From positions 1,632,001-1,696,000 of the forward strand of contig OZ242365.1 of assembly GCA_965208905.1 (NCBI GenBank): a DNA stretch of 64,000 nt. Direction: 5' to 3'. This stretch comes from Nitrosopumilaceae archaeon (GTDB lineage Archaea > Thermoproteota > Nitrososphaeria > Nitrososphaerales > Nitrosopumilaceae). The translations under genes were made by a program, and so were the position numbers. Under the pieces are notes generated by a model, which ran no database searches, was not told the origin of the DNA, and saw only the letters and a program-made list of their open reading frames with translations. Shown in pieces: positions 57,955-64,000 of the stretch (position 1 is its first letter; the number at the start of each line of letters is the position of its first letter).

Positions 57955-58770
57955 TTAGGCGCTGCGGACTATCTTGGCAAGGGCAGTATATCTATTGGCC
58001 AGTGTCGTATCGGCGATGCCGGCAGCCTTGGCGATATTGTGCCGTATTATGGGCTCGCCGCGTTCGACGCACGCCATGTAGAGCGCACTCGCGGCCAGAC
58101 TGATCGGACTCTTACCGGCGACATCGGTATTGTTGAGGTTTGAGAGTATTCGTATGGCATCGCGCCGTACAGCCTCACCAATACCTGCCTCGCTTCCTAT
58201 GCGGGCTATGAGTGAGACGGGGTCGGGTATGGGTAGGACTATGTCAAACCTCTCAAATATCTGGCGATATACTCGGCGTATGATGTGCTTCGATAGGCCC
58301 GTCACCGCCACTATATCATCCAGTGAGCGTGGGAGGTTGTGTTTCCGACATGCCAGCAGGGCTATTGCAGCAATAAAGTGTGTGAGTGTGCGGCCGGCCA
58401 TGAATTTTGATGCCACAATCCGCCGGAACATATACACTGCATACTCGCCTGCTGCGTCGGTCATAGACAGTTCGGTGCGTATTTTGGAGAGTTGCACCAG
58501 TCCGACAGGCAGCGAGCGCTGCTCGTACGTCTGGCACCAACCATTGACGCGCTGTAATCGCTTTGTGTTGATAATTTTTGTATCGATTACACGGCCTATG
58601 TAGTCTTTTGTGTGCTGGCCCATTGTCGTGGCAAAGTTGTAGGAGCGTGCATCACCTGCATATCCTGTCTGTTTTGGTTGTTCCATACTGTATCCGTGGA
58701 CCGTGCCGCATATGCGGCAGACGAACTCTCCATCGGCGTCCACAATCGTACCTTCACAGTTACATTTCAT
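57955..58770 (-). CDS. tfb: transcription initiation factor IIB paralog 3
   Basis: CNC..DADGEFVCRICG; AGRT..AIALLACR; AGKSPISLAASALY...TTLANRY. Confidence 0.9.
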   Translation of the reverse strand: MKCNCEGTIVDADGEFVCRICGTVHGYSMEQPKQTGYAGDARSYNFATTMGQHTKDYIGRVIDTKIINTKRLQRVNGWCQTYEQRSLPVGLVQLSKIRTELSMTDAAGEYAVYMFRRIVASKFMAGRTLTHFIAAIALLACRKHNLPRSLDDIVAVTGLSKHIIRRVYRQIFERFDIVLPIPDPVSLIARIGSEAGIGEAVRRDAIRILSNLNNTDVAGKSPISLAASALYMACVERGEPIIRHNIAKAAGIADTTLANRYTALAKIVRSA

Positions 58771-59050: not shown

Positions 59051-59070
59051 AAAGCTCCTGATCACAGTAG

Positions 59071-59375
59071 TAGTGTAGTGTAGTGTAGTGTAGTGTAGTG
59101 TAGTGTAGTGTAGTGTAGTGTAGTGTAGTGTAGTGTAGTGTAGTGTAGTGTAGTGTAGTGTAGTGTAGTGTAGTGTAGTGTAGTGTAGTGTAGTGTAGTG
59201 TAGTGTAGTGTAGTGTAGTGTAGTGTAGTGTAGTGTAGTGTAGTGTAGTGTAGTGTAGTGTAGTGTAGTGTAGTGTAGTGTAGTGTAGTGTAGTGTAGTG
59301 TAGTGTAGTGTAGTGTAGTGTAGTGTAGTGTAGTGTAGTGTAGTGTAGTGTAGTGTAGTGTAGTGTAGTGTAGTG
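59071..59375. repeat. perfect pentanucleotide array (TAGTG)61
   Basis: 305 bp of uninterrupted TAGTG. Confidence 0.97.
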
Positions 59376-59428
59376 TAGTAGCATACTACGATCTACTGAT
59401 CTAGGAACTGTCCCATGTACGGCGCTTG

Positions 59429-59675
59429 TCTACAGACATGCGCGTAGGTTGACAGCCTGCCGTACGGCAGATGTTGGCGAGTTGCCATTCAGAGGAGCTC
59501 CATTGAGATGTCCTTTGTTGGCTGGACTTTGATGTACAACCTTTGGACAGCCTGTGCCGGCCACCACGTCGCCAACGACACTGGGTATTGTGAGTGTCGC
59601 GAGATGTATCTTTCCTCTCAAGACCATTCCAGCCTTGTCTTGCAGACTATATGCGGTCTGCGCGCGCTTGTTCCA
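59429..59675 (-). ncRNA. omegaRNA overlapping the tnpB 3' end; right end TCAA at 59452-59449
   Basis: Terminal hairpin CTGCCGTACGGCAG then TCAA; boundary defined by comparison with the copy at 42579. Confidence 0.65.
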
Positions 59676-60740
59676 GGATATTGCATCCGGAATGTATAGT
59701 ATATTGTACGCGGCATTGATGTCCGCGTGCATCAGAACACCGCATGTATGGCACCAAAACCTACTGCTCTTGCGCGTTGTGTTCCTACTACCGCACATAC
59801 AGCATAGCTGAGATGTACCACGCTGATTGATTTCCACATATTCTATACTGTGTTGCAGGGAACTCTGCGCGATGTGGCTTCGCGCCTCACCACATTTGGA
59901 CTGCCGCATTAGACGGTTCTTGTTTCTCTGACCCTTCCCTTTTGTGGTTATGGTGCGGAGGTTCATGCCCTCCATGATTATTTTGTCGCACTGCGCGAAC
60001 AGTTTTTTGGCAAACTTGCGCAGTTTGTCCGTCTGCCTATTTCCCATCTTCTTGTAGACGCTTTGCAGCTGCGCATGCAGTGTACACCACTTGTGGGAGT
60101 GAAGTTTGCAGCGCGCCATCTTCTTTTGAATCCGGGCTATGTTTCGTATGGTGTCCTTCTCGCGCAATGTAAGCATGGCGATTGTACCGTCGGACTTGCC
60201 GACTATAAGCGTGTGCTTGCCGCCCATGTCAACCCCCGCGTGTACACCTGTCGCTATACGGCCCGGGACATGCTCTCTAACCGTCATATGTAGTTCAAAT
60301 TGCCTCTCCTTATCATCATGGTTTGTGACATCCACAAGCTTGTATGACTGTGATGTGTCCGGGAGTGTACCTTTCTGCAGTTTGAAAGGAGCGCCGCACT
60401 TTGGAAAATACACTATATTGCCCTTGGACTTTTTGCCGAGTGGCACGTTGCTGAATAGTGGGTAAACCTTCTTACCATACTTTACGTGAGAGCAGCCCTC
60501 CATCGCGTGGCCTTCTTGTATGGCTCCACGAACCCACACTTGTGGGATTGTCTGGCACATGGTGGCTATTTTATTGGTGTCAAATACAGACAATCCGGCC
60601 CGCCGCGCCTTTATCCCCACATTCAACCATATGTGAGATTCGGAGTACATGGAGTCAAAGTATTTGGTCAGTCTCGCGCCAGTCTTGAGGCGGTATCGCA
60701 GGGTTTTGACAACATGCTTGCCGCCCTTGTACTTGGCCAA
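59430..60740 (-). CDS. tnpB: RNA-guided endonuclease TnpB (divergent; no tnpA)
   Basis: RuvC GVDMG / IIMEGM / HADINAAYNI; TSQLCCMCG...CHTCG; the ORF reads through its omegaRNA. Confidence 0.88.
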   Translation of the reverse strand: MAKYKGGKHVVKTLRYRLKTGARLTKYFDSMYSESHIWLNVGIKARRAGLSVFDTNKIATMCQTIPQVWVRGAIQEGHAMEGCSHVKYGKKVYPLFSNVPLGKKSKGNIVYFPKCGAPFKLQKGTLPDTSQSYKLVDVTNHDDKERQFELHMTVREHVPGRIATGVHAGVDMGGKHTLIVGKSDGTIAMLTLREKDTIRNIARIQKKMARCKLHSHKWCTLHAQLQSVYKKMGNRQTDKLRKFAKKLFAQCDKIIMEGMNLRTITTKGKGQRNKNRLMRQSKCGEARSHIAQSSLQHSIEYVEINQRGTSQLCCMCGSRNTTRKSSRFWCHTCGVLMHADINAAYNILYIPDAISWNKRAQTAYSLQDKAGMVLRGKIHLATLTIPSVVGDVVAGTGCPKVVHQSPANKGHLNGAPLNGNSPTSAVRQAVNLRACL

Positions 60741-60926
60741 CTATGCCTCCGACCCTACATTCGCCGACGCGCTGGTGTCCGCGCGGCACATATCGAGTTG
60801 CATACCCCAATACGTATCGGTCCCTTTTAAGGGGGGAATTGTGGGTGGGAAGTTGTAGAGGCTAGAAGTTTGTGGCTGCTACTGTTTCCAGTCTAGGCGC
60901 TGTTTTGGGACAGTTCACTTGGAGGC

Positions 60927-61319
60927 CTATGGTGAAGCACCATGTTGACTTGCCAAGTTAGTTAATTCAGAGATCAGATCTCGTAGTGTGGCCATCAGCA
61001 CCGGATCCGCGGGTACTCCATGTTGGGCAGCCCCCTGCATCTTCAAGAGATCCCGCTGTGCGGCCTCCTGTGCCTTGACGAGTTCCCGACGGGTTTTACT
61101 TGCCCCCTTAACAACCTCCCGTAGATTCTTCTGACGGACCAACTCTGCATCTTTGGCGGCATTGCTCTGTTTCACTTGCACCTTAAGTTCCGCATCAATG
61201 TTCATTTTGGCTAAATGTGCAGCGGTAGGATCCAAACCGGGTGAAAACACATTACGGCAGTTTGGGCATTGCACTTCCAATATTTTACACTCTCGCGTAA
61301 TCATATTAACCGTTCCCAT
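60927..61319 (-). CDS. Zn-ribbon + coiled-coil protein (DUF2130-like N-terminus)
   Basis: VQCPNCRNVF followed by a coiled coil. Confidence 0.5.
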   Translation of the reverse strand: MGTVNMITRECKILEVQCPNCRNVFSPGLDPTAAHLAKMNIDAELKVQVKQSNAAKDAELVRQKNLREVVKGASKTRRELVKAQEAAQRDLLKMQGAAQHGVPADPVLMATLRDLISELTNLASQHGASP

Positions 61320-61480
61320 CCATCACTAACTTTCCAATAGTCATGGACTGGAAAGTTAACGATACATGAGCGCGGCTGGATGATGCGCAGAGGAATGACA
61401 AGAAATTTACCACGGGATGGTACATGCTCCTCCACAAGCAATAATATGAGGAGACAGATAAAGCCGATTCTGAGAATCAG

Positions 61481-62308
61481 ATGGCGAACAAGTCGGTGGA
61501 CGATGAGCTTGAACAAAGATGTAAGCGCTATCGGATAAAAAAAGAACGCGTGCTTGAAGTATACGGAACAATAAAGCCGATACTGGACGATGCCGCCTCC
61601 AACGTAGATTTAGACGCAGTCATAGAGTCACGTGAAATTATGGATGTGGCCAGAAAGCTTCGATGCAATACGGCAGTTCTCAAATTCGAGGGCGCAGAGG
61701 TAGACTACCAAAACTCCAACACATGGGTGGACATCTTGTACAAGGCCGAGGCAATGAAACTCACAAACAAGGAATGGCTGGTTTTCAGGGCAATCACATA
61801 CGTGGTTTTGGCAGAAAACATATACAATAGGATCGTAAGCGTGTTGTGTTATGCCTTGGTTCACCGAACTGCGCAGCCGCTCTTGGACAAGAAACTAAAC
61901 TGCATGACAGATTTCGAAGACATATTGTCCAAAGTTGACCTATCAGACAAGCTAAGATTTTTGCCCGACAGCTGTTCCGAACTTGCCGGTGCATGCAACC
62001 TAAACCTGCGAAATTCAGCCGCGCATATGCGATTCTGCCTCGTTCCGGATATAGACCTATGCCAAGAAACACATGGGACTTCCACGAGCTATAGCATAAC
62101 GTCTAAGATACGTGTTAAAAAACACGATTTTTACCTGTTAAAAAAAGAGCATGGTAGCTGGAAACGTCTTGACGACAAGCCAACCGACCCGAAAGAGGAG
62201 CTAACCAAGTTAATGAGCGTGACACATATGTGGCATACCGCCCTCCTGCATTATCAGGCCGTCAAATGGTTTGATGAATTTACACCACTATTCAAAAATG
62301 CCGACTAA
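61481..62308 (+). CDS. hypothetical protein, possible HEPN-like
   Basis: 275 aa; RNSAAH fits an Rx4H motif. Confidence 0.55.
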   Translation: MANKSVDDELEQRCKRYRIKKERVLEVYGTIKPILDDAASNVDLDAVIESREIMDVARKLRCNTAVLKFEGAEVDYQNSNTWVDILYKAEAMKLTNKEWLVFRAITYVVLAENIYNRIVSVLCYALVHRTAQPLLDKKLNCMTDFEDILSKVDLSDKLRFLPDSCSELAGACNLNLRNSAAHMRFCLVPDIDLCQETHGTSTSYSITSKIRVKKHDFYLLKKEHGSWKRLDDKPTDPKEELTKLMSVTHMWHTALLHYQAVKWFDEFTPLFKNAD

Positions 62309-62590
62309 TCTGCACGCAGTCCTGCCCGGACGCGCCGTAGAGTCCCGGAGCGCTCCCGAATCCACATTCATCTCCAAGGGGAATCATACAGAAAAGTACA
62401 CAGCCTCGGCTGTACACTTATCCCTTTTCTGACGGCCTCGTTGTATGGTGTACAGCATGGAGGGTGTTGGCTTGTAGCCCTCCTTATGCCCTGGCCGTCT
62501 TAGGACGACGTTCCCCACCACCCGATACAGGATATTCCAGGCTCCTCTCCCGGAGTCCTGTCCTCAGGATTCATGTACCGACCTTGCGGT

Positions 62591-63220
62591 TTAGACGAGG
62601 TCGTTAAACGCCTTGGTCATACCCGTAAGCAACTTACGGACAAACTCCTTTCTGTCGGTCATACCAAGGCCATACTTGTCAATGTTTCTTTCATATTTGC
62701 TTCCTTTCCTGTGGGCATCCGCACTAGACCTCAAATTCTGGACCTGTCGCAGGAGTGAAATGATATCTGTCGGTAACGATTCATGTTTGAGGAATGCATC
62801 AAGCACTGTTATGCTGCCCTCCTTCTTCAATTTCTCACACTCAGTATCCACATGCTTGAGTAATTGCTCCTTGTTTATGGAATCGGGAAGCAGTACCGCC
62901 AAGTAGTTGAACTGCCTCTCAAACTCGTCAGGGTCATCGTTCAGCGGAATCCTGATGCCCTTCTCCTTGTGAGCATCCTCTTCATGGAGTTGCAGAAATA
63001 GTCTGAAGCCGAACCGACTCTCGAACCTTTCTTGAAAGTTGCACCAAGACTCTTTGAACTTATCTACCACATCATCTGAATCTACAAACACTCCATCAAA
63101 ATCCCTGGCATAACGACTCTCAGTGATACCACCCTCTGGTGGTACATTATATATTTTCCAGTGTTGTTGTTCATTTTCCGGTAGACGCTCTTTAATATCC
63201 CCCAAATAAACCTGCACCAA
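62591..63220 (-). pseudogene. 5'-truncated gene fragment (helical, R...AH motif)
   Basis: No ATG; the ORF begins at the repeat-family end at 63225; LRSSADAHRKG. Confidence 0.5.
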
Positions 63221-63411
63221 TTCTTGAACTGTTCAGTTAACAGCGCCTGTTCAGTTATAGCGCCCAGAGTGGAAACATGGGTCGTGCACGATCAGGCGTG
63301 TGGAGTGGAAATGAGGTCAAAATTCTAGAGTGGAAACGGTGGTCGTATACCTAGATTTCTAGTCCAAGTCACAAATTTCCCACCTTTGTATATGTTACAG
63401 TTTCTTACCAG

Positions 63412-63590
63412 AAGCTATGTGTCGTTGTTATATCGGCGACACATGTACTCTTCCTGTTGGACCTGAGAGTCGACAGGAACTGGCCCCTCCGAGGGCGCTT
63501 ACCAGAATGGCTCAAGGTACGTGAAAAGCTTCAGCCCCTCCGAGGGCGGATGGAAGTTTACCATGGTCAGGTCCGACTATCCACTAAAAA
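63412..63590 (+). ncRNA. putative IS110 bridge RNA in the left end
   Basis: Hairpins at ~63418-63445 and ~63452-63479; two GCCCCTCCGAGGGCG hairpins, each flanked by guide-like segments. Confidence 0.6.
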
Positions 63591-64000
63591 GGAGGTGAAA
63601 TGAAAAAAAGAATTGCATTACATCGGAATTGACGTACACATGAGAAGATGTGTGGCCACCACCAAGGGAAGATCCAAAAAGGTGTTAGACCAGTTTGAGT
63701 TCAACAACGACCTGCACGGGATACGTGCGTTCGCCAGCAGAATGCTGCGCCGCGAGTACACGCCGGCGGTAGCCGTCTTTGAGTCCACCGGTAACTATTG
63801 GAAGGTACTCCACAACGAGCTAGAGGAGACAGACATCAAGCCGGTCCTGGTCAACCCGTACGACCTCAAGATCATCACTCAGGCAAAGTTTAAGGACGAC
63901 CGGGTTGACTCTGAGAGGTTGTCCGACCTAGCCAGGGGAGACCTGTATAGACCATCCTACGTTCCCACCCAGAAAGAGATGGACCTGCGCGAGCTTACCC
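63412..64000 (+). mobile_element. IS110-family element (left end + recombinase N-terminus, runs off window)
   Basis: Frame from 63613: LHYIGIDVH...FESTGNYW...LVNP...KDDRVDS (DEDD RuvC-like). Confidence 0.88.

Follow-up and report, generated by a model that had tools for sequence, protein, structure and literature searches.

How does an archaeal insertion sequence (IS) come to lie, in copy after copy, in one and the same short sequence? The question is raised by the right-hand end of a 64,000-nucleotide window from a Nitrosopumilaceae archaeon (contig OZ242365.1, positions 1632001-1696000, + strand; the genome is a single contig of 2.21 Mb), where an IS110-family element begins close to the window's last position and runs beyond it. 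We propose, with a probability of roughly 85%, that this 1669-bp element, IS1111-like in several of its traits, picks its insertion site by means of a bridge RNA (seekRNA) that it encodes itself. A first-pass annotation of the same DNA had already suggested a bridge RNA programmed with the sequences at the element's own boundary. Positions below are those of the window unless marked as genome positions, and string coordinates within 62800-64000 were checked by script.

The boundary sequence is repeated inside the left end of the element. CTTACCAGAA is present twice, once at the junction of flank and IS (63404-63413) and once within the predicted noncoding RNA (ncRNA) upstream of the transposase gene (63498-63507). 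The same stretch holds two identical copies of a 14-nt hairpin, GCCCCTCCGAGGGC (63483-63496 and 63534-63547), flanked by GGAACT, AGCTTC and ATGGAAGTT. GGAACT (63476-63481) stands immediately 5' of hairpin 1, its extended form GGAACTGG being the reverse complement of CCAGTTCC; AGCTTC (63527-63532), 5' of hairpin 2, is the reverse complement of GAAGCT (63411-63416); and hairpin 2 is followed by ATGGAAG (63550-63556) and then TT (to 63558). The repeat, the hairpins, GGAAC, the AGCTTC/GAAGCT complement and the AG register had all been called in the first-pass annotation and hold up position by position, and its choice of AG as core, CTTACC-AG-TTCC as target and ATGGA-AG-AAGCT as donor fits the sequence throughout.

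When the four guide segments are forced to stay unpaired, the RNA folds as an outer stem round two internal loops, each capped by a hairpin (Table 1). The 197-nt left end folds at -72.8 kcal/mol, with a z-score of -3.23 and none of 200 shuffles equally stable. In loop 1 the 3' strand reads CUUACCAG, in the same sense as the left target half and core. The matches are 8+6 nt long for the target and 7+6 nt for the donor, and every one of them abuts AG. Beyond the 3' guides come two further bases in each loop, in the place of the handshake guides of the bacterial element IS621: AA after the target-loop guide equals the first 2 nt of the IS, and UU after the donor-loop guide equals the first 2 nt of TTCC.

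Where the element ends and its target begins follows from comparison of its copies across the whole genome. Copy A, the one in the window, spans genome positions 1695404-1697085 and starts at 63404; copy B (genome 1374833-1376514) is 100% identical to it over 1682 bp; copy C (genome 1907161-1908838, minus strand) is 96% identical; and copy D is a 203-bp fragment of the left end (genome 140125-140327, minus strand). Similarity to A begins at 63404 in copy B and at 63405 in copy C, which confirms 63404 as a genuine boundary. The copies share a unit of 1682 bp, running from CTTACCAGAAGCT to ACACATGGAAGTTCCC, without the first C and the last C in copy C. Its outer 8 nt and 4-5 nt are target and read CTTACC-AG-TTCC(C) when joined; CTTACC-AG is common to copies A, B and D, and copy C has TTACCAG. 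The IS proper, AAGCT...ATGGAAG, measures 1669 bp with one copy of the AG core counted. All three full copies occupy one 11-13-nt site, (C)TTACC-AG-TTCC(C), in flanks that are otherwise unrelated, with no target duplication beyond the core; insertion is thus site-specific, and none of the copies turned up in an unrelated sequence. For the right junction, which lies beyond the window (genome 1697073-1697085), the first-pass annotation had predicted a string ending in GATGGAAG followed by TTCC. The genome there reads CATGGAAG followed by TTCCC, in agreement at 7 of 8 positions and over the whole of TTCC.

Without interruption the 12-mer, CTTACCAGTTCC, is found in the genome 4 times (0.26 expected); with one mismatch the count is 26 (9.5 expected). 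Judged by a rough rule on context, 2 of the 4 exact and 13 of the 26 one-mismatch occurrences stand at tips of terminal inverted repeats (TIRs) of a second transposon family. A contig from sequencing run X5 carries the IS, TTCC and then a flank that is 26/28 identical (by eye) to the flank of an empty tip at genome 1540023, which reads CTTACCAG-CTCC-...; one site is therefore occupied in the X5 strain and empty in the present genome.

The second family can be described from its termini. Near-matches of the 12-mer have a common upstream context, and a profile of this context finds 62 places in the genome at E up to 10, with 42 at E<0.01. The termini form outward-pointing inverted pairs, round 134-600-bp units that resemble miniature inverted-repeat transposable elements (MITEs) or round larger units bearing cargo. 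The ends of the family read GGRRCTGG...CCAGYYCC. Several copies of GGAGTGGAAA lie inside the ends in either orientation (50 in the genome, 4 expected), and 8-bp duplications stand directly outside the ends in 3 of the 13 pairs examined (GATATGGT, TAATTTTT and one matching at 7/8), the other 10 being without. Some termini adjoin a transposase gene with SWIM and DDE_Tnp_IS240 domains (Pfam, 45.7 bits against a cut-off of 27), for which tblastn returns 13 matches in the genome, each with at least 360 aligned residues; its best NCBIfam match is IS6, at 85.8 bits and under the curated cut-off of 125. An 8-bp target duplication is typical of IS6, and multiple subterminal repeats are not. Judged from these sequences, the target is the last 12 nt of the TIR of an IS6-like transposon/MITE family, with the IS inserted 4 bp from the tip. 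Upstream of the IS, the stretch from about 40 to 180 nt shares 89% identity with genome 1256361-1256500, and weaker matches to it occur at other termini. Such a TIR-tip site is repeated and probably harmless to the host.

The earlier claim that the IS parasitises another element survives in that the site recurs uninterrupted as the tip of a mobile element; what has to be given up is the nature of that tip, which belongs to a TIR and not to a cassette recombination site. The repeats were also considered as integron-like cassettes, a reading rejected in view of the inverted pairs, the subterminal repeats, the 8-bp duplications and the DDE transposase genes. Pairing the IS site with a terminus at genome 1666021, as one 29-kb element, was also rejected, the flanks having no common 8-bp duplication (by eye). 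A separate 1821-bp unit (genome 1471027-1472847) has TIRs of the host family and a perfect 8-bp duplication; its protein is by the look of its sequence IS630/Tc1-like and not IS6-like, and it may be a nested insertion into a MITE.

The copy comparison, taken by itself, yields a 1682-bp unit that includes CTTACCAG and TTCC(C). These could then be the true ends of the IS, and the TIR-family tips would be alike for another reason, for example as solo IS ends. We consider this highly improbable: dozens of termini show the 12-mer in one piece and possess their own subterminal repeats and inverted partners; duplications of 8 bp lie directly outside ...TTCC in the three pairs mentioned; copy C does without the outermost C on either side; and relatives with other guides sit in other flanks, which match those guides.

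These relatives, sampled from one archaeal class, also show that the fold is maintained. Relatives of the transposase occur in 32 of 201 sampled class genomes, and 17 of them have a similar leader. Sixteen were aligned as RNA, one (G053) being omitted because of a long insertion. Over the 16 relatives the four helices have 87.9% of cells paired against 61.2% in shuffles, 15 of the 19 pairs vary on both sides, and the covariation score of 0.675 (0.226 when shuffled) is reached in 0 of 500 shuffles, with slid controls at 0.17 or below. The fold is kept across them with compensatory changes, in line with the first-pass reading of the leader as a bridge RNA. When the 16 sequences are made into a covariance model, its score at 63446-63596 is 101.2 bits; the model matches 9 places in the present genome and 21 of 151 sampled class genomes, a tally that includes one unpublished genome (G132) used for no other result.

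Covariation bears on whether the internal copies of the end sequences act as RNA at all. They might instead be protein-binding DNA sites, like subterminal transposase sites, and the repeats are there in the DNA whether it is transcribed or not. The segments lie, however, on strands of internal loops, and the closing stems and hairpins of these loops stay paired because changes on one side are compensated on the other, which points to constraint on RNA; each pair consists of one sense and one antisense segment ending at the core, the RNA-DNA pairing scheme set out in the published passages cited below. A role purely at the level of DNA therefore seems to us very unlikely.

If the loops are guides, they should follow the flanks as they change. 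We compared them in 12 elements from 12 genomes with both junctions found, setting the guides of each against its own flanks and against those of the other 11 elements (G117, G053, G181, G180 and G175 were left out, one or both of their junctions being missing). The 6-nt left guide agrees with its own flank at 4.75 of 6 positions on average, as against 1.36 for the flanks of others; the right guide, anchored on the core, is matched over 3.9 nt in its own flank and over 1.37 nt in others; and the loop-1 handshake scores 2.0/2 in its own element (12/12 fully right, with AA, AC or AT) and 1.41 elsewhere. The core dinucleotide is equal in loop 1 and loop 2 in 17/17 relatives, where it is AG or TG. 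In the orthologue from G117 the left end has an insertion of about 110 nt and the flank matches only the last 4 nt of the left guide; no right end was found in that locus.

Several results weigh against this reading. The 5' guide of the donor loop is just 6 nt long and leaves the first core base unpaired. Among the relatives, several have flanks that match the left guide at only 5-6 of 8 positions, and the loop-2 handshake is weak: of the 12 elements, 4 have it in full, 5 by half and 3 not at all, and its mean is 1.08/2, where non-cognate pairs reach 0.85. A search of Rfam 15 (60000-64000 and the whole element, E up to 10 or 5) gave no family match, the sole hit, Yar_1 at E 1.3, being dismissed as noise. 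The covariance model, searched at E up to 1, has no hit in the non-coding region of the bacterial IS5075 and thus gives no sign of homology with bacterial IS1111 RNAs. In contigs of run X1, from the same organism as here, neither a circle junction nor an empty site turned up. The predicted circle junction, ACACATGGAAG followed by AAGCTATGTGT, and precise excision were likewise not seen across the contigs of runs X1, X5, X6 and X23, a result that is not evidence of absence, the joint search having used contigs, which drop rare forms. In X23, an RNA run, the contigs are confined to the right non-coding region and to the 3' part of the transposase gene (L001 2273-2671 and 2895-3270, at 90-95% identity), and are uninformative on the bridge RNA either way. 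The transposase frame is broken in 3/3 copies, and copy C has an additional TGA.

A naive shuffle test, finally, gives only about 1%. In it both strands of the empty target and of the circle junction, as inferred here, were searched for matches to the ncRNA, register and placement being ignored; the summed longest matches come to 29, a value reached by 193 of 20000 dinucleotide shuffles, and the single longest matches are weak alone (equalled in 634, 1561, 5029 and 10447 of 20000). The weight is carried by placement: four matches abut one dinucleotide, on the two strands of two stem-closed loops, with 2 nt behind them that agree with the opposite partner. Single matches of 6-8 nt are indeed frequent in shuffles, as chance similarity in a GC-rich structured leader would have it, but chance does not account for their joint placement, the register on one dinucleotide, the recurrence of the RNA in 21 of 151 sampled genomes and the covariation of guides with flanks. 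We regard it as an extremely remote explanation.

The broken frame raises a different doubt, namely whether the system still works in this genome. The transposase open reading frame (ORF, 63613-63999) runs off the window and its product begins MHYIGIDVH. The ATG upstream is out of frame with the transposase because of a run of seven A, and the in-frame start would be the TTG; no indel at the run of seven A is listed in the contigs of other runs. The orthologue from G117 has an in-frame GTG at the corresponding place. Pfam recognises DEDD_Tnp_IS110 (83.6 bits) and Transposase_20 (63.4 bits), the latter domain cut by a frameshift at profile position 58/87. The intact orthologue from G117, 74% identical, scores 225 bits against a cut-off of 140 on NCBIfam NF033542, 'IS110 family RNA-guided transposase'. 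The nearest solved structures are the transposases of ISCro4 and IS621, and protein identity is about 25% to IS5075/IS4321 and 35-36% to haloarchaeal IS110-family genes.

The frameshift is a 1-nt insertion, AAA for AA at element positions 1020-1022 (genome 1696423-1696426, outside the window, corresponds to element positions 1020-1023), a +1 shift between ITK and SGS that interrupts ITK-SGSRWLRNAAVEAA in copies A, B and C alike. Since it is common to all three, the copies are probably non-autonomous here. The extra A is present in X1 contigs, from the same organism as here, and absent from those of X5, X6 and X23; in relatives, the frame of the orthologue stays open over about 330-460 aa. Together with the TGA of copy C and the lack of circle or excision joints in the contigs of the four runs, this would fit an element of bridge-RNA design that is dead in this genome: its copies would be non-autonomous fossils with matches inherited and not in use, and any movement would be due to a related intact transposase. 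Against such a relic stand the 100% identity of A and B over 1682 bp, which suggests recent movement; the first 265 nt, RNA included, which are identical in all three copies, even in the otherwise 96% identical copy C; other IS110-family genes in the genome with RNA of the type found here, though their guides and ends differ; and the possibility of a +1 slip at AAA-G. To us the two sides are evenly balanced. That copy C has the same frameshift suggests gene conversion, a shift that is tolerated or recoded, or copies that spread once the mutation had arisen.

Whether or not it is still active here, an RNA of this design would be used as follows. By analogy with the work on IS621 and IS1111, the RNA would be made, bind the recombinase and guide recombination. 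The two strands of loop 1 would pair with both strands of the target, and those of loop 2, AGCUUC and AUGGAAG, with the junction of the circularised element, ...ATGGA-AG-AAGCT...; AA and UU would stabilise the exchanged strands in the manner of the IS621 handshake guides. The DEDD/serine recombinase would then exchange strands at the common AG (CT on the other strand), and the exchange would place the IS 4 bp from the TIR tip of the IS6-like transposon/MITE family.

The ends of the element help to place it among known systems. With the core counted on the left, it extends beyond its subterminal inverted repeats by AGAAGCT (7 nt) at the left end and by GGA (3 nt) at the right end, and relatives G012, G093 and G152 likewise have 7-nt and 3-nt extensions. 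The right-end partner of the left repeat is ACACAT (6 perfect, 9/13 overall), and the repeats of G093 and G152 are 12-14 bp long. An A/T-rich box stands at a comparable distance from the RNA in relatives, and the TTATAT listed in Table 1 may act as an internal archaeal promoter. The left non-coding region measures about 200 nt and the right one 458 nt (genome 1696628-1697085). A right region of about 450 nt, with a GC-rich hairpin in the present element, is found in it and in its closest relatives (1658-1705 bp), and shorter relatives (1282-1437 bp) are without it. A second guide RNA was looked for there; no target or donor match of at least 7 nt was found except to the element's own end and subterminal repeat.

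Table 1. Bridge RNA, left end of the IS, its target and the start of the transposase gene (window positions unless marked as genome)
Feature	Position	Strand	Details
Host transposon right end, subterminal part	63268-63403	+	3 GAGTGGAAA units and 1 inverted unit TTTCCCAC; last unit degenerate, runs into tip
Left target half and core	63404-63411	+	CTTACC-AG; positions 1-8 of 12-nt host TIR tip
IS, part within window	63412-64000	+	First 589 nt; IS end at genome 1697080
Left subterminal inverted repeat	63417-63444	+	ATGTGT(CG); local pairing with CGACACAT at 63437-63444
Candidate archaeal TATA box	63428-63433		TTATAT; in repeat loop, about 25 nt upstream of stem P1
Bridge RNA core	63457-63576	+	About 120 nt; from minimum-free-energy and guide-constrained folds and covariation
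P1 outer stem	63457-63466 with 63567-63576		10 bp
Target loop (loop 1), closing stem	63467-63472 with 63508-63513		
Target loop, 5' strand	63476-63481		GGAACU; complements top-strand AG-TTCC (core and right target)
Target loop, 3' strand	63498-63507		CUUACC-AG, then AA; sense of left target and core, predicted to pair with bottom strand
Donor loop (loop 2), closing stem	63520-63523 with 63562-63565		
Donor loop, 5' strand	63527-63532		AGCUUC; complements G-AAGCT (second core base and IS left end)
Donor loop, 3' strand	63550-63558		AUGGA-AG, then UU; sense of IS right end and core
Transposase start region	63590-63999	+	Strong Shine-Dalgarno-like AGGAGGTG; ATG 63600; TTG start 63613; N-terminal DEDD domain
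Right target half	Genome 1697081-1697085		TTCC(C); beyond window

The element resembles IS621 in having its RNA upstream of the recombinase gene, in the left end; in its DEDD and Tnp domains; in the two internal loops, target then donor, with two guides each that end at a common core dinucleotide; and in a 2-nt handshake, placed after the 3' guide, with a match to the non-cognate DNA. The last of these agrees in position and logic with the handshake guides as described for IS621 (passages of Hiraizumi 2024, PMC11208158). Strand pairing, read in the sense of the transposase, is reversed: in IS621 the 5' strand of a loop pairs with the bottom strand and the 3' strand with the top strand, according to the relevant passages of Durrant 2024 (PMC11208160) and Hiraizumi 2024 (PMC11208158). 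The core is here CT (CA in relatives) on the strand opposite the gene, and whereas the CT core of the IS110 group has a near-invariant T, it is the C of the other-strand CT/CA that is invariant here. Further differences are the long 3' guides (7-8 nt) with short 5' guides (6 nt), subterminal repeats of at least 6 bp as against 2-3 bp in IS621, and a likely internal archaeal TATA box in place of the sigma-70 promoter at the IS621 junction.

The traits not shared with IS621 are largely those of the IS1111 group (ISEc11, ISKpn4, ISPa11). Guide order, the presence of subterminal inverted repeats, 7-nt and 3-nt extensions and the absence of a target duplication beyond the common dinucleotide are all alike. 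In the part of Siddiquee 2024 (PMC11187229) that deals with IS1111-type seekRNAs, the complement of the top strand lies 5' of that of the bottom strand, the extensions beyond the repeats are 7 nt on the left and 3 nt on the right, and the repeats are usually 11-13 bp; the corresponding passage of Durrant 2024 (PMC11208160) gives 7-17 bp. The subterminal repeat of the present element is short by comparison (6 perfect, 9/13), those of its relatives less so (12-14 bp), and its RNA lies upstream of the transposase gene, in IS1111 downstream. The order of right guide before left guide, which the first-pass annotation had called unusual, is indeed reversed with respect to IS621 and ISEc21, but it is not unusual, being published for IS1111-type seekRNAs (in the part of that work just cited) and readable in IS5075. 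Its assignment of the element to IS110 is borne out by the IS110-family domains and the upstream RNA, and needs amending for the rest: on sequence, ends and guide polarity are IS1111-like, and only the position of the RNA is IS110-like.

IS4321 and IS5075 are the nearest parallel in behaviour, as IS110-family elements whose target is one particular position within the TIR of a different transposon family. They differ in their bacterial host, in RNA downstream of the gene, in a target that is a Tn3-family TIR and in a protein identity of about 25%. In a plasmid copy of IS5075 (L043), the downstream non-coding region contains AAAACGGAAA, a complement of the right target, then a hairpin and TATTTTC, which has the sense of the left target. 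The last bases of the second loop are ATAGAT, and the TC behind them, with which the right flank also begins, is a donor-loop handshake. This is the polarity found here.

Exceptions are named in the passages of Siddiquee 2024 (PMC11187229) on non-coding regions: ISMtsp17, with an upstream region, and ISHvo10 and ISAcp5, with long regions on both sides. The present element, compared with them by that description only, resembles ISMtsp17 as an IS1111 relative with an upstream non-coding region, and ISHvo10/ISAcp5 in its long non-coding regions on both sides. ISHvo10 is haloarchaeal, to judge from its name. Our literature search found no description of an upstream RNA combined with an IS1111-type layout in archaea; the portions of Vaysset et al. 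available to it treat archaeal IS110 recombinases and not their RNAs.

The genome holds further lineages of this kind. A second IS110-family element (genome about 1779940-1781610, minus strand; 27% protein identity) has the same type of RNA, with guides CCGGAG-UG and UUUCCA. Because of these guides its target would be GGAG-TG-GAAA, a subterminal unit of the same host transposon family, and the element does sit in such a unit, between GTTGAGTG and GAAACATAGGTC. A sister copy (genome 572050-573700, minus strand) has a poorer target match.

Three other loci were noted. A third relative, with 43% protein identity and one TAG, lies at genome 138100-139060 (minus strand). Its guides are UUGAAC-AG, CCTGAACAG precedes it, and fragment D (140125-140327) is close by. 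The left guide of fragment D is altered to UUUAAC-AG, which equals a tip variant, CTTAACAG, found elsewhere, its own flank still being CTTACCAG. At genome 1544684-1544960 (minus strand) lies a left end with an RNA (79.8 bits) whose guides CGAGUU-AG match the flank GGAGTTAG; no transposase frame follows, and the locus therefore resembles an orphan bridge RNA.

On the near side of the IS, the window contains a gene for a TFIIB-repeat protein (57958-58770), a perfect array of (GTAGT) x 62 (59070-59379) with TLHYT repeats in a minus-strand ORF, and a TnpB-like gene (59433-60740, minus strand) about 2.7 kb from the IS, scoring 49.9 bits for Cas12f1-like TNB and 30.0 bits, just below the cut-off, for OrfB_IS605.

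It is tempting to go further and see here a third RNA-guided architecture of the IS110 family, with IS1111-type ends and polarity, upstream RNA and an internal archaeal promoter, of which at least two lineages hyperparasitise one DDE transposon. We offer this tentatively and think it somewhat less probable than its negation. If true, the element would be a candidate intermediate for a switch between the IS110 and IS1111 layouts. Its lineages would be aimed at different motifs of the host ends, the tip CTTACC-AG-TTCC in one and the subterminal GGAG-TG-GAAA in the other, and this would amount to hyperparasitism between transposon families, programmed by RNA, in which the ends of the host transposon are disabled.

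On the firmer reading, of an IS1111-like element that finds its site through its own bridge RNA, a known mechanism appears in an uncommon arrangement, and the mechanism itself is unchanged. The element type is widespread in one archaeal class and probably disabled in the present genome. All four guides and both handshake dinucleotides can be read from the sequence alone, outside bacteria. IS1111 polarity and ends are compatible with an upstream RNA, which bears on the relation between the two published layouts, and an archaeal RNA that is GC-rich and compact (about 120 nt), its two loops capped by identical hairpins, may be of interest for the engineering of bridge recombinases. For the archaeal family itself, the ends of resident transposons would be safe landing sites, as they are for IS4321 and IS5075 in bacteria.

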